Source: Escherichia coli (GTDB taxonomy: Bacteria; Pseudomonadota; Gammaproteobacteria; Enterobacterales; Enterobacteriaceae). Taken from it: a DNA stretch of 64,000 nucleotides. Below are positions 30,401-36,400 of the stretch, one piece after another (positions within the stretch are counted from its first letter, which is position 1; each line of letters begins with the position of its first letter). Made by a program: the position numbers. Location of the stretch: the NCBI RefSeq assembly GCF_011045215.1, contig NZ_CP049201.1; one strand, given 5' to 3'.

Positions 30401-33400
30401 GTCTTTGAGCCGCTGTGGACGGTGATCCCCGGCAACAAAGCGATTCTGCCGATCCTCTGGTCGCTGTTCCCGCACCATCGTTACCTGCTGGATACCGATT
30501 TCACTGTTAATGATGAATTGGTGAAAACAGGTTACGCAGTGAAACCGATCGCCGGTCGCTGTGGTAGCAATATCGACCTGGTCAGCCATCATGAAGAAGT
30601 GCTGGACAAAACCAGCGGTAAATTTGCCGAGCAGAAAAACATCTATCAGCAACTGTGGTGTTTGCCGAAAGTGGACGGTAAATACATTCAGGTATGTACC
30701 TTCACCGTTGGCGGCAACTACGGTGGGACGTGTTTGCGCGGTGATGAATCACTGGTCATCAAAAAAGAGAGTGATATTGAACCGTTAATTGTGGTGAAAG
30801 AGTAATACATGTTGTAGCAATCCCGTACTGATTATGAAGAATAGTCAGTACGGGGATTAATCAAAATATTCAATATTTATATATTCCAATATTTATTCAT
30901 TTCATATGTGAATACATTAACCAGCAGAATGCCTGTGTTCTAATTATTTCTAAAGATTTTTAATGAATGCTTATTGTCTGATACACAAGAAATAACACTC
31001 TTTTTATCGTTAAAAAATGATATTTCACTTTGCCCACACCGTTAAAGTCACTGATAATGCGTCCGTTCGTAAATTCAAAATGGCGTAATCTAATATATGC
31101 TAAATTTATTTGTTGGCCTTGATATATACACAGGGCTTTTGTTATTACTTGCTCTGGCATTTGTGTTGTTCTACGAAGCAATCAATGGTTTTCATGACAC
31201 GGCGAATGCGGTGGCAACCGTTATTTATACTCGTGCCATGCAGCCACAACTTGCTGTGGTGATGGCGGCATTTTTTAACTTTTTTGGCGTGTTATTGGGC
31301 GGACTTAGCGTTGCCTATGCCATTGTCCATATGTTGCCAACCGATTTGTTGCTGAATATGGGGTCAACCCACGGCCTGGCGATGGTCTTTTCCATGCTGC
31401 TAGCGGCGATTATCTGGAACCTGGGAACGTGGTTCTTTGGTTTACCGGCCTCCAGTTCGCATACCTTGATTGGCGCGATTATCGGCATCGGTTTAACCAA
31501 CGCACTGTTAACCGGCTCATCGGTGATGGATGCGTTAAACCTGCGTGAAGTGACCAAAATTTTCTCCTCGCTGATTGTTTCCCCTATCGTCGGCCTGGTC
31601 ATTGCGGGTGGTCTGATTTTCCTGCTGCGCCGTTTCTGGAGTGGGACGAAAAAGCGTGACCGTATTCACCGCATTCCGGAAGATCGCAAAAAGAAAAAAG
31701 GCAAACGTAAGCCGCCATTCTGGACGCGTATTGCGCTGATTGTTTCCGCTGCGGGCGTGGCGTTTTCGCACGGCGCGAACGACGGACAGAAAGGGATCGG
31801 CCTGGTGATGCTGGTACTGGTGGGGATTGCCCCTGCTGGCTTCGTCGTCAATATGAACGCGTCCGGCTATGAAATTACCCGTACCCGCGATGCCGTTACC
31901 AACTTCGAACACTACCTGCAACAGCATCCTGAACTGCCGCAGAAGTTGATTGCGATGGAACCTCCATTGCCTGCGGCATCGACTGATGGCACGCAAGTGA
32001 CAGAGTTTCACTGTCATCCGGCAAATACCTTTGATGCGATTGCGCGCGTTAAAACGATGCTGCCAGGCAATATGGAAAGTTACGAGCCGTTAAGCGTGAG
32101 TCAGCGCAGCCAGCTGCGCCGCATTATGCTGTGCATCTCTGATACCTCCGCGAAGCTGGCGAAACTGCCAGGCGTCAGTAAAGAAGACCAGAACCTGCTG
32201 AAAAAACTTCGCAGCGATATGTTAAGCACCATTGAGTACGCTCCGGTGTGGATCATCATGGCGGTAGCACTGGCGCTCGGCATTGGCACCATGATTGGCT
32301 GGCGTCGTGTTGCGATGACCATCGGTGAGAAGATTGGTAAGCGCGGCATGACGTATGCGCAAGGCATGGCGGCACAAATGACGGCGGCAGTGTCTATCGG
32401 TCTTGCCAGTTATATTGGGATGCCCGTCTCTACAACACACGTCCTCTCGTCTGCAGTTGCAGGGACGATGGTGGTGGACGGCGGTGGGTTACAGCGTAAA
32501 ACGGTAACCAGCATCCTGATGGCATGGGTGTTTACTTTACCGGCGGCAATTTTTCTTTCTGGTGGGCTGTACTGGATAGCATTGCAGTTGATTTAACCTT
32601 CCTGAAATGCCCGGTCCTGGCGATCGGGCATTTCCATTTTTGGCTAGTGATAACCACGCGCGGTCATAAAATCCGTAATCGCTTTTTCTGCATCAACTAA
32701 CACCTGTTCCAGTGGCTGATTGGCGTCGATATCAACCAGTTGTGCACCACCAAAGGTTAACTGTGGCGTTATGGCTATCTTTCTTGCCAGCGACTCCCTT
32801 TTGTGGTCAGGCTTACGCGCGCAGGCCACGTCTAGATCGACATTGAGTTTGATGACCAGATCAGGCTTATGGCTCGCCATCCAGTGAAACGCTTTACGTT
32901 CCTGGCTTGCCAGCCATGAGACAAAACGACCACCTTCAACGTTAGGTGGGAACACCGTACCATCGTAAGCGCCAGGAATTTGGTCCTGAGGATAACGGTC
33001 GGTTAGAACAATTAACCCGCGACGACGACAGGCAAGCATATGACGAAAGCGCAGTAAGCGACGGGCGACAAACGCTGTAATTACCAGCGCCGGAACTGGT
33101 CCTGGCAATTTTTTTGCTGTTTTCACCTGATTTCGTTCAATTGTTTTATGTAAGGATTTTCCCATCAACGGTAATTTTGTCACTGCACGACCGACATTTC
33201 CGGCTTGTTTTCCTAAATGAACTCTTTCGGCAGCACCATATTTTTCGACAACGGTAATGAGATGTTCACACACCGTTGACTTGCCTGAACCATCGCTACC
33301 AATAACGGCAATTAATGGAGGTGTTATTGACTGCATGAATATATCCTTTAATTTAAATATCCATCCAAAATATTTATTTGGTTAATATGTTTTTATGAAA

Positions 33401-36400
33401 GCGTAATTCAGGTCAATGTCACAATTAACCATTGTCACAATAAGGTTGAACGGATATTCTGAGCACGGACCACGTAATATTCAATACATTATTTACTGCC
33501 GGGTTTTTCGTGAATCAACGTAATATGTCAATAATTAATTCCACGCCAGTGCGTGTTATTGCCATTGTAGGATGTGATGGTTCAGGTAAATCGACCCTCA
33601 CGGCAAGCCTGGTAAATGAACTGGCAGCAAGAATGCCAGCAGAACACATTTATCTCGGGCAATCGTCCGGGCGAATTGGCGAATGGATTTCACAGCTCCC
33701 TGTTATTGGCGCACCTTTTGGGCGTTATTTGCGAAGTAAAGCGGCACATGTGCACGAAAAGCCCTCAACACCGCCTGGCAATATTACTGCGCTGGTTATC
33801 TATCTGCTTTCCTGCTGGCGGGCGTACAAGTTTCGCAAAATGTTGTGTAAAAGCCAGCAAGGCTTTCTGCTCATCACCGACCGCTACCCGCAGGTTGAAG
33901 TGCCGGGGTTTCGCTTTGATGGCCCGCAATTGGCAAAAACCATGGGCGGTAACGGTTGGATAAAAATGTTAAGGCAGCGCGAGCTGAAGCTGTACCAATG
34001 GATGGCGTCTTATTTGCCCGTATTGTTGATTCGTCTTGGCATTGATGAACAAACCGCGTTTGCGCGTAAACCTGACCACCAACTGGCAGCGTTACAGGAA
34101 AAAATCGCCGTTACGCCGCAATTGACATTCAATGGCGCAAAGATCCTTGAACTGGATGGTCGGCAACCAGCCGATGAAATTCTGCAAGCGTCACTACGCG
34201 CAATTCACGCCGCGCTTTCCTGATCACCAAAATGGATAGGGGATGATTTAACGAATGGATGCACTACAAACACAAACTGTTATTAGTACAACCGCGCCGC
34301 AGCCCAACTACATTCCGGGGCTGATTGCGGTGGTCGGGTGTGATGGCACCGGTAAATCCACACTGACCACCGACCTGGTGAAATCGCTGCAACAACACTG
34401 GCAAACCGAGCGGCGCTATCTGGGGCTGCTCTCCGGCGAAGACGGCGACAAAATCAAACGATTGCCGTTGGTTGGCGTCTGGCTGGAACGGCGACTGGCG
34501 GCCAAATCCTCGAAAACCCAAAGCATGAAAACCAAATCTCCGGCGCTATGGGCGGCGGTGATTATGTACTGCTTCTCGCTGCGAAGAATGGCGAATCTAC
34601 GCAAGGTTCAGCGACTGGCGCAAAGTGGCGTTCTGGTGGTCAGCGATCGCTTCCCGCAGGCTGAAATTTCGGGCTTTTATTATGACGGACCGGGGATTGG
34701 CGTCGAACGTGCGACCGGGAAAATCAGCATGTTTCTGGCGCAGCGCGAACGGCGTTTATACCAACAAATGGCGCAATATCGCCCGGAATTAATTATTCGC
34801 CTGGGCATTGATATTGAGACTGCCATCTCCCGCAAGCCTGACCATGACTATGCCGAGCTGCAGGACAAAATCGGCGTCATGTCGACGATTGGCTATAACG
34901 GCACAAAAATTCTTGAGATTGATTCCAGAGCGCCCTACAGCGAAGTGCTGGAACAGGCACAGAAGGCGGTTTCTCTGGTTGCCATCGTTTCTGACCGCCG
35001 AAGTTTAACTTAAGGCTGGCGGGATACTTTTTACTATCAACGATAAGGTCAGGCTGAATTGGCGGGTTTTAACATCAAACATTGGTTTGCAGATGGCGCG
35101 TTTCGCACCATTATTCGCAATAGCGCCTGGTTAGGCTCCAGTAATGTCGTGAGCGCCTTGCTGGGGCTGTTGGCGCTCTCGTGTGCCGGTAAAGGGATGA
35201 CGCCCGCCATGTTTGGTGTACTGGTGATTGTGCAATCGTACGCCAAGTCGATCAGCGATTTTATTAAGTTTCAGACATGGCAGCTGGTGGTTCAGTACGG
35301 AACGCCAGCCTTGACCAACAATAATCCGCAGCAATTTCGCAATGTCGTCTCATTTTCCTTCTCGCTGGATATCGTCAGCGGCGCGGTGGCGATTGTCGGC
35401 GGCATTGCCTTACTGCCATTCCTTTCCCATTCATTAGGTCTGGATGACCAAAGCTTTTGGCTGGCGGCGCTGTATTGCACGCTCATTCCTTCAATGGCTT
35501 CCTCCACGCCGACCGGCATTCTGCGTGCGGTAGATCGCTTTGATTTGATTGCTGTACAGCAGGCGACGAAACCTTTTCTGCGCGCAGCGGGGAGCGTCGC
35601 AGCCTGGTATTTTGACTTTGGTTTTGCGGGTTTTGTTATTGCCTGGTACGCATCGAATCTGGTTGGCGGCACCATGTACTGGTGGTTTGCCGCGCGCGAA
35701 TTACGCCGCAGAAATATCCATAACGCCTTCAAATTGAATCTGTTTGAGTCTGCTCGACACATTAAAGGCGCGTGGAGTTTTGTCTGGTCAACCAACATTG
35801 CCCACTCCATCTGGTCGGCGCGTAACTCGTGCAGCACAGTGTTGGTGGGGATCGTGTTAGGACCCGCTGCCGCCGGGTTATTTAAAATCGCCATGACATT
35901 CTTCGACGCCGCCGGAACGCCAGCGGGTTTGCTGGGTAAAAGTTTTTACCCAGAGGTGATGCGTTTAGATCCGCGCACCACCAGACCGTGGTTGTTAGGC
36001 GTGAAGTCCGGTTTACTGGCGGGCGGAATCGGTATTCTGGTGGCGCTCGCGGTGTTGATCGTCGGCAAGCCGCTCATTTCGCTGGTGTTTGGCGTTAAGT
36101 ATCTCGAAGCGTATGACCTGATTCAGGTGATGCTGGGCGCAATTGTGATCTCGATGCTGGGCTTCCCTCAGGAGTCATTGCTATTGATGGCGGGAAAACA
36201 GCGCGCTTTTCTCGTGGCGCAAACCATCGCCTCAATCGGCTACATCGTATTGCTGTTCATGTTCTGTCATCTGTTTGGCGTGCTGGGAGCAGCGTTTGCT
36301 TATTTCGGCGGTCAATGTCTGGATGTGGTGCTTTCGCTAATTCCGACCTTAAAGGCATTTTTTCAGCGCCATTCCTTGCTTTATAACGCAGCCGGAGAGA

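Follow-up and report, generated by a model that had tools for sequence, protein, structure and literature searches.

Three related genes beside a sphingolipid cluster

This study concerns yghT, yghS and yghR, three genes for related P-loop proteins that adjoin a sphingolipid gene cluster in Escherichia coli, within a 64,000-nucleotide stretch of contig NZ_CP049201.1 (RefSeq assembly GCF_011045215.1) that is referred to here, at its full length, as the window. The genes themselves are not new, and the locus has been depicted in published work on bacterial sphingolipids; no functional assignment for YghR, YghS or YghT was found in the literature; they are uncharacterised genes in the best-studied bacterium, carrying dTMP kinase labels in the databases that are without support. 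The three genes, which encode P-loop kinase paralogues with the thymidylate kinase (TMPK) fold, and the motif positions in yghS are as follows.

32644-33336, minus strand: yghT, 230 aa, TMPK-fold P-loop kinase paralogue (basis: open reading frame, paralogy and a distinct orthologue group)
33510-34223, plus strand: yghS, 237 aa, TMPK-fold P-loop kinase paralogue
33570-33596, plus strand: Walker A motif of yghS
33879-33893, plus strand: DRYPQ motif of yghS
34065-34079, plus strand: RKPDH motif of yghS
34255-35013, plus strand: yghR, 252 aa, TMPK-fold P-loop kinase paralogue (basis: open reading frame, 43% identity to YghS and a separate orthologue group)

The open reading frames were located at the positions and on the strands given for them in a preliminary description of the window. 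BLASTP comparison over about 217 residues gave 37% identity between YghT and YghS (E = 1e-54), 43% between YghS and YghR (E = 2e-62) and 34% between YghT and YghR (E = 3e-47), and the paralogy asserted in that description is far beyond chance. The Walker A motif G(S/C)DG(S/T)GKST and the (T/S)DR(Y/F)PQ and (A/S)RKPDH blocks are common to all three proteins, and a regular-expression search found no LSGGQ-like signature in any of them, both as first described. The motifs are not private to the three proteins, as had been supposed, since the family that carries them comprises at least 2154 cluster representatives at 50% identity. The picture of a tandem trio holds for yghS and yghR only: yghT is divergently transcribed, and a 173-bp AT-rich spacer lies between yghT and yghS.

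Fold and family assignment

YghT, YghS and YghR have a phosphotransferase fold of the TMPK and deoxynucleoside kinase type and form a distinct branch that is not covered by Pfam. A five-stranded parallel sheet, a P-loop, acceptor-binding helices and a LID, together with a structural match to known kinases, place them in the class of P-loop nucleoside monophosphate and deoxynucleoside kinases, and the family profile matches TMPK structures with an E value of 7e-13. The profile alignment pairs the P-loop (GxDxSGKST), the DRY motif and the LID arginine (ARKPD with AQNRSD) of the two families, and the P-loop with its acidic residue, the DR(Y/H) motif and the LID arginine are 96–100% conserved. Invariant Arg104, 21 residues N-terminal of the DR arginine, is paired with the arginine in the 'FSANR' segment of TMPK, an acceptor-binding residue of that enzyme. 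The initial likening of the proteins to thymidylate or deoxynucleoside kinases rather than to ABC ATPases is borne out by the profile match and the aligned P-loop, DR and LID elements; the P-loop fold is that of a kinase, and the catalytic residues are present and at least 91% conserved in each orthologue group.

Several other assignments were considered and rejected. The fold and motifs rule out an ABC ATPase (LSGGQ, Q-loop and H-loop are all lacking, and the ABC profile matches cover the P-loop only), as they do a GTPase or an AAA+ protein. A ceramide kinase of the DAGK/LCB5 type was discarded, as the fold is TMPK-like and no DAGK family appears among the Pfam and NCBIfam results for the three proteins. 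An anti-phage defence role was likewise set aside, the PADLOC models giving only matches limited to the P-loop (YghS, E ≥ 6e-4). In the Pfam scan at E ≤ 0.001 nothing was found beyond a generic AAA_22 match, and the NCBIfam scan returned only sub-threshold dTMP kinase matches and matches to the P-loop alone.

The dTMP kinase matches bear on the reading in which these proteins are genuine dTMP or nucleoside-monophosphate kinases, as the RefSeq names of yghS and yghT imply. The TMPK-like fold and the weak TIGR00041 scores (24.6 bits for YghT, 24.6 for YghS and 32.0 for YghR) speak for it, but the scores fall far under the curated cut-off of 83.25 bits, and Pfam Thymidylate_kin (PF02223) is unmatched by all three proteins at E ≤ 0.001, with a best i-E value of 0.011. 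The position aligned with the thymine-stacking aromatic of TMPK, four residues before the acceptor arginine, may also speak against it, being Leu or unconserved in two of the three groups; judged from the alignment only, the YghS group has Leu there, and the YghT and YghR groups have Phe at only 50–80% or more. Three paralogues are moreover conserved together within the lipid clusters of many genera, and the silencing by H-NS described below is ill-suited to a housekeeping nucleotide kinase. This reading is therefore highly improbable, and both the RefSeq name 'dTMP kinase' (yghS and yghT) and the AlphaFold database name 'Thymidylate kinase' are probably over-annotations. In comparison with Tmk (PF02223, TIGR00041), YghT, YghS and YghR have a longer acceptor-side segment, from strand 2 to the helix before the DR motif, do not appear to conserve the base-stacking aromatic and occur as three co-conserved paralogues in lipid clusters. 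They also carry further invariant features that are not those of TMPK, namely PQ after DRY, Asp137, Glu158, the KPDH that follows the LID arginine, and Lys198.

Orthologue groups and residue conservation

A genome scan with one genome per species gave 78 loci, nearly all of which carry two to four family members; clustering of the open reading frames at these loci placed the kinase family in 76 of them, with 202 copies. Best-match scores sort the members cleanly into YghT-, YghS- and YghR-type groups, and the order of a yghT gene divergent from a yghS-yghR pair recurs in Enterobacterales, Carnimonas, Rhodanobacter/Luteibacter and metagenome-assembled genomes (MAGs) of Beta- and Gammaproteobacteria. 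In Acetobacter and Sphingopyxis all three groups are present in different gene orders. Since the three groups recur across so many taxa, the triplication is old, with each copy retained. There are indeed three related genes, as the preliminary description had it; they represent ancient orthologue groups kept across Proteobacteria and not a recent local event. Relatives in the AlphaFold database come from Sphingobium, Novosphingobium, Zymomonas, Acetobacter, Gluconobacter, Commensalibacter, Azotobacter and Pseudomonas.

Conservation was computed on 53–56 non-redundant sequences per group, with residues in YghS numbering. Sixteen positions are at least 91% conserved in every group: Asp23, Gly24, Gly26, Lys27, Arg104, Asp124, Arg125, Pro127, Asp137, Glu158, Arg186, Lys187, Pro188, Asp189, His190 and Lys198. 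On the acceptor side the groups differ, position 48 being His, Tyr and Tyr and position 51 being Lys, Gln and Leu in the YghT, YghS and YghR groups, respectively, and the segment that follows also differs between groups. This pattern fits three active enzymes that would share the same chemistry and act on different acceptors, rather than one enzyme with two pseudo-enzymes.

The locus in the E. coli window

The features that surround the three kinase genes are listed below; those without a strand are marked as such.

32604-32634, no strand: terminator-like hairpin with a 13-bp stem, between the convergent ends of pitB and yghT
33337-33509, no strand: AT-rich intergenic region between divergent yghT and yghS, GC 0.40
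33432-33460, no strand: promoter-like site, a consensus promoter match (weak evidence)
35059-36408, plus strand: yghQ, 449 aa, MOP/Wzx-type flippase (NCBIfam MOP match; Pfam Polysacc_synt_3 in orthologues)
36408-37232, plus strand: CHAD-fold protein, 274 aa, annotated as hypothetical
37241-37804, plus strand: YtfJ-family protein, 187 aa (TIGR01626, 212 bits against a cut-off of 151)
37835-38905, plus strand: lptF paralogue, LptF2 (NCBIfam LptF, 318 bits against a cut-off of 230)
38902-39981, plus strand: lptG paralogue, LptG2 (NCBIfam LptG, 305 bits against a cut-off of 240)
39979-40013, no strand: hairpin with a 16-bp stem and 10 G-C pairs, between the convergent ends of lptG2 and spt
40016-41188, minus strand: spt, serine palmitoyltransferase (NCBIfam NF047599, 597 bits against a cut-off of 500)
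41188-41436, minus strand: acpR, dedicated acyl carrier protein (RefSeq annotation; PMC9386255)
41468-42382, minus strand: cerR-like NAD-dependent reductase (PMC9386255)
42379-44067, minus strand: aasR, fatty acyl-AMP ligase/acyl-AcpR synthetase (NCBIfam NF006624, 870 bits)
44472-45614, plus strand: yghO, candidate N-acyltransferase (ceramide synthase; co-occurrence in 28 loci; proposed in PMC9386255)

The locus is a sphingolipid cluster of the Rhodobacteria type, in which spt, acpR, aasR, cerR, the N-acyltransferase candidate, LptF2/LptG2 and the flippase adjoin the kinases. The yghS, yghR and yghQ genes, the CHAD-fold gene, the YtfJ-family gene, lptF2 and lptG2 form a seven-gene unit with no strong internal terminator, which ends at the hairpin at 39979-40013. 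The Spt, AcpR and AasR proteins of E. coli B have been shown to produce 3-oxo-sphinganine, with ECD_02850 (yghO) proposed as the N-acyltransferase (PMC9386255), and the LptF2/LptG2 homologues in the sphingolipid locus of Caulobacter are required for sphingolipid transport (bioRxiv 10.64898/2026.04.12.717747). The E. coli cluster differs from that of Caulobacter in its lack of CpgA, CpgB, CpgC and CpgD: no head-group genes of the cpgA-D type are found in its gene annotation, and neither annotation nor the NCBIfam scan revealed a CDP-alcohol transferase, glycosyltransferase or nucleotidyltransferase. In Caulobacter, cpgB encodes a DAGK-type ceramide kinase, and cpgA, cpgC and cpgD encode CDP-alcohol-type and nucleotidyl transferases (PMC10331486; PMC11324152).

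Two annotations at the locus deserve mention. RefSeq names LptF2 and LptG2 as lipopolysaccharide export permeases because their scores exceed the NCBIfam equivalog cut-offs, and they are actually second copies within the sphingolipid cluster. The yghO gene, whose product has no NCBIfam family match, bears the K-12 annotation 'putative DNA-binding transcriptional regulator' and accompanies spt in 28 loci.

Conserved neighbourhood across genomes

The numbers of loci, among the 76 with clustered kinase genes, at which a given neighbour lies within 10 kb of the family are as follows.

CHAD-fold protein: 53 of 76 (the commonest neighbour)
MOP flippase: 52 of 76
Spt: 47 of 76
CerR: 46 of 76
AasR: 41 of 76
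AcpR: 39 of 76
YtfJ: 32 of 76 (Enterobacterales only)
LptF2/LptG2: 32 of 76
YghO: 28 of 76
OlsC/LpxO-like acyl 2-hydroxylase: 18 of 76
DgkA-like kinase: 16 of 76
LpxE-like PAP2 phosphatase: 15 of 76
SepP/PgpB/LpxF-like PAP2 phosphatase: 8 of 76
LmtA-like lipid A 1-phosphate O-methyltransferase: 7 of 76

In the scan itself, spt was within 10 kb in 45 of the 78 loci and at least one cluster gene in 64 of them; among the 25 full-flank loci outside Enterobacterales, ten have spt and 20 have the flippase or the CHAD-fold protein. A Methylotenera MAG has two PAP2 genes (reverse, forward), a kinase (reverse), the CHAD-fold gene, two kinases and a hydroxylase (all forward) and, further along, the flippase, spt, acpR, cerR and aasR (all reverse) and yghO (forward). 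An Aeromonadales MAG begins in the same way with two PAP2 genes (reverse, forward) and a kinase (reverse), followed by an LmtA-like gene (reverse) and two kinases (forward). The further neighbours, that is the PAP2, DgkA-like, LmtA-like and OlsC/LpxO-like proteins, are all predicted to act on lipid phosphates or lipid acyl chains.

Genes for LmtA-like proteins lie between or beside the kinases at seven loci (L050, L065, L066, L071, L077, L081 and L084), with a score of 119 bits for the L050 member, the only one scanned; this neighbour suggests that the product phosphate is methylated in some taxa. A DgkA-like (DAGK_prokar) small membrane kinase paralogue is found in the clusters of Serratia, Carnimonas, Rosenbergiella and Pantoea, among others (for example, L002 2279-2644 and L004 12404-12730) and is absent from the E. 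coli cluster. A secreted family of about 170 residues with a CGxxLCGxI motif is encoded 3' of the hydroxylase at nine loci (L042, L046, L049, L056, L057, L061, L065, L068 and L076); it belongs to the Beta- and Gammaproteobacterial versions of the cluster and has no NCBIfam match.

A second architecture of the kinase family, of about 500 residues (P0163 and P0169), carries an N-terminal domain of about 260 residues with the motif H(W/F)KSNxHL...GxTDxDxLVD, for which no Pfam, NCBIfam or PDB sequence match was found. In polysaccharide clusters this form (L005 5721-9482) directly follows Wzx and is itself followed by Wzy, a GT4 glycosyltransferase and another small P-loop protein, the last of these being the nearest to it. 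Natural fusions also occur (P0214, P0268 and P0256): two high-GC proteins of 978 and 1038 aa join a MOP flippase, an unknown domain and a YghS-like kinase, and one protein of 669 aa joins a GT4 glycosyltransferase to a YghS-like kinase. From the Wzx adjacency and the MOP and GT4 fusions it is concluded that the kinase family has a general tie, on the cytoplasmic side of the membrane, to the molecules that MOP flippases move.

The same linkage could be taken to mean that the three proteins do not phosphorylate an acceptor but bind nucleotide or hydrolyse ATP as partners of YghQ or LptF2/LptG2, which they would regulate or power, perhaps assembled into one hetero-oligomer. Gene linkage is tightest with the MOP flippase, to which direct fusions also exist, and three co-conserved paralogues could make up one complex. 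However, MOP flippases are ion-coupled and are not known to be ATP-driven, and the fold and motifs are those of a phosphotransferase that has an acceptor site (a DR clamp arginine, Arg104 as the counterpart of the acceptor-binding arginine of TMPK, and the LID), with no ABC signature, Q-loop or H-loop in any of the three proteins. As for the permeases, Caulobacter LptF2/LptG2 come without a dedicated ATPase, which would leave room for such a partner, but they use the housekeeping LptB (bioRxiv 10.64898/2026.04.12.717747). A role as a flippase or permease partner is thus quite unlikely.

The CHAD-fold neighbour

The 274-aa protein encoded directly after yghQ has a CHAD fold, with two four-helix bundles, a conserved basic surface and a match to solved CHAD structures. 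Its family has invariant Arg60, Arg88, Lys92, His93 and Arg95 and nearly invariant His193, Arg196 and Lys197. The E. coli protein itself has no Pfam or NCBIfam match, and only one of 40 relatives reaches PF05235, at 2.6e-5; the CHAD-likeness of this hypothetical protein is previously unrecognised in the literature found, and a literature search for CHAD together with sphingolipid gave nothing relevant. The PADLOC defence models did not match it. CHAD domains are specific polyphosphate-binding modules, in which the phosphate chain is threaded along a basic surface and pore (PMC6537752; PMC6771595). In comparison with known CHAD proteins (PF05235; RcCHAD 6qv5, CtCHAD 3e0s, PptA 6rn5 and YgiF), the 274-aa protein is linked neither to CYTH nor to genes of polyphosphate granules, and its gene lies in a lipid export operon. 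Its pairing with the kinases suggests an unexpected tie between polyphosphate-type chemistry and lipid head groups.

Such a partner raises the alternative that YghT, YghS and YghR resemble PPK2, using polyphosphate held by the CHAD-fold protein as a donor or making or consuming polyphosphate locally, with an indirect link to lipids. We regard this as very doubtful. The three proteins have no detectable sequence relationship to PPK2, and their structural match to it is weaker than that to TMPK. PPK2 also acts on nucleotides and polyphosphate and not on lipids, unlike the role proposed below for YghT, YghS and YghR.

Proposed function and mechanism

The genes for a ceramide core and for its export are present in the E. 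coli-type cluster and the Caulobacter head-group genes are not, and YghT, YghS and YghR are therefore proposed as the head-group kinases; together with the CHAD-fold protein they are the only candidate head-group enzymes there. On balance it is somewhat probable that they act in the cytoplasm as ATP-dependent kinases and furnish the sphingolipid of the cluster with an anionic phosphate head group. The suggestion of head-group or lipid kinases in the preliminary description is thereby upheld and narrowed, to a proposed module of three kinases and the CHAD-fold protein. To the paralogy, fold, catalytic-residue conservation, ancient three-way orthology and conserved neighbourhood computed here, this proposal adds a predicted kinase activity, a lipid substrate read from genomic context, and a putative order of action and product.

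In the proposed route, Spt, AcpR, AasR, YghO and CerR would produce a ceramide-type lipid. YghT, YghS and YghR, each with its own acceptor pocket, would then move phosphate from ATP to the lipid or to a phosphate that it already bears. DgkA, or the DgkA-like paralogue at the 16 loci that have one, could supply the first phosphate; E. coli DgkA phosphorylates ceramide in vitro. The CHAD-fold protein would bind the phosphate or oligophosphate moiety, YghQ would flip the anionic lipid over the inner membrane and LptF2/LptG2 would extract it toward the outer membrane, whilst in other taxa the PAP2 phosphatases may trim the phosphate, or the LmtA-like methyltransferase cap it. The typical reaction of TMPK-type enzymes converts a phosphomonoester into a diphosphate. 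Because their acceptor is of this kind, and because the constant partner of the kinases has a fold that holds phosphoanhydride chains, a pyrophosphate or short oligophosphate head group would be a plausible product. The gradient at position 51, from Leu in YghR through Gln in YghS to Lys in YghT, would fit, as a suggestion, acceptor pockets that grow more basic and acceptors with rising negative charge. The specific model in which a ceramide with a pyrophosphate or short oligophosphate head group is built stepwise by the three TMPK-fold enzymes, held by the CHAD-fold protein, flipped by the MOP flippase and exported by LptF2/LptG2 is put forward tentatively and with a low probability. If true, it would make these proteins the first lipid-directed members of the TMPK fold, give CHAD a first role in lipid biosynthesis and predict an undescribed outer-membrane lipid in about three quarters of complete E. 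coli genomes and in many Proteobacteria.

Known systems offer both parallels and differences. CpgB (CCNA_01218), the ceramide kinase of Caulobacter, takes the same presumed place in the pathway, as a cytoplasmic kinase encoded in a sphingolipid locus that contributes to an anionic head group (PMC10331486), whereas it is of the DAGK/LCB5 type with a GGDG motif and a fold unrelated to that of YghT, YghS and YghR. The logic also resembles that of LpxK, LpxT, LpxE/LpxF, LmtA and DgkA, in which phosphate is added to an outer-membrane lipid anchor at the cytoplasmic side and is later trimmed or capped, and genes of the LpxE/LpxF/SepP, LmtA and DgkA types adjoin the kinases in other taxa.

A further alternative is that the three enzymes phosphorylate a soluble precursor, for instance a sugar, acid or nucleotide-linked donor of the head group, which is later joined to a lipid or glycan. 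All solved relatives of the fold act on soluble small molecules or nucleotides, and the relatives of about 500 residues lie in polysaccharide clusters with glycosyltransferases. However, the E. coli cluster offers no CDP-alcohol transferase, glycosyltransferase or nucleotidyltransferase for the attachment, the fusion to the cytoplasmic end of MOP flippases indicates a membrane-bound substrate, and the neighbours are lipid-phosphate enzymes; a soluble acceptor is accordingly unlikely.

Several points weigh against phosphorylation of a sphingolipid head group by YghT, YghS and YghR. The literature yielded no biochemical or genetic experiment on any family member, the sphingolipid of E. coli is undescribed in the literature searched, so that a phosphorylated head group is a prediction, and literature searches for that head group and for a link to yghQ found nothing relevant. 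No TMPK-fold lipid kinase emerged from the structure, family or literature searches, and the known bacterial ceramide kinase, CpgB, has the different DAGK/LCB5 fold (PMC10331486). There are no ceramide genes within 10 kb at 33 of the 78 family loci, and the 500-residue form belongs to Wzx/Wzy polysaccharide clusters; the acceptor may thus be something that flippase substrates share more widely. The cpg orthologues and the YghRST family occur together in Zymomonas and sphingomonads, and the idea that the YghRST and Caulobacter Cpg modules are mutually exclusive was dropped for this reason. CerR is periplasmic in Caulobacter (PMC11087976), which complicates the question of the intermediate that a cytoplasmic kinase would meet; because of this location, the acceptor may be 3-oxo-ceramide rather than ceramide.

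Placing the kinases in a head-group module gives a concrete proposal of function for a cluster that about 75% of complete E. coli genomes carry intact, and it points to an anionic sphingolipid in Enterobacterales. The anionic sphingolipids of Caulobacter can stand in partly for lipid A, determine sensitivity to polymyxin and influence virulence. If the proposal is true, a counterpart in E. coli, Serratia, Citrobacter, Hafnia and Pantoea would bear on the biology of the outer membrane and on the action of antibiotics.

Distribution in E. coli and regulation

The stretch from 32000 to 36500 matches 5082 of 5426 complete E. coli genomes at 95–99.9% identity, and the segment from the CHAD-fold gene to aasR is present in 4066 of the 5426 (about 75%). 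In K-12 MG1655 (NC_000913.3 3130146-3132408), IS5 (insH9) abuts a 3'-truncated yghQ, and the CHAD-fold gene, the ytfJ-like gene, lptF2, lptG2, spt, acpR, cerR and aasR are missing, lost in a deletion associated with the IS5. The yghR, yghS and yghT genes of K-12 are left as orphans, and the K-12 reference hides the cluster.

A literature search for functional studies of yghR, yghS and yghT gave mentions of four kinds only, namely a silkworm knockout panel, membership of the SlyA/H-NS regulon, and listings in an FlhDC SELEX (systematic evolution of ligands by exponential enrichment) paper and in genome-deletion reports. Knockouts of yghQ, yghR, yghS and yghT in the silkworm panel gave 80–100% survival and no clear phenotype; these strains appear to be K-12 derivatives, which are without the rest of the cluster. 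In K-12, yghS belongs to the H-NS regulon, and SlyA induces it (PMC5797941). GC content falls to 0.40 over 33000-33499, which covers the 5' part of yghT and the spacer between yghT and yghS, and this is consistent with the reported H-NS silencing and SlyA induction of yghS. The two strong hairpins at 32604-32634 and 39979-40013 are likely to be bidirectional terminators that bracket the units.

Identity to the stretch from 32000 to 36500 reaches at least 99% in only 50 of the 5082 matching genomes, with a freshwater isolate and isolates from baboons as the best matches, so the E. coli lineage of the window is a divergent one.

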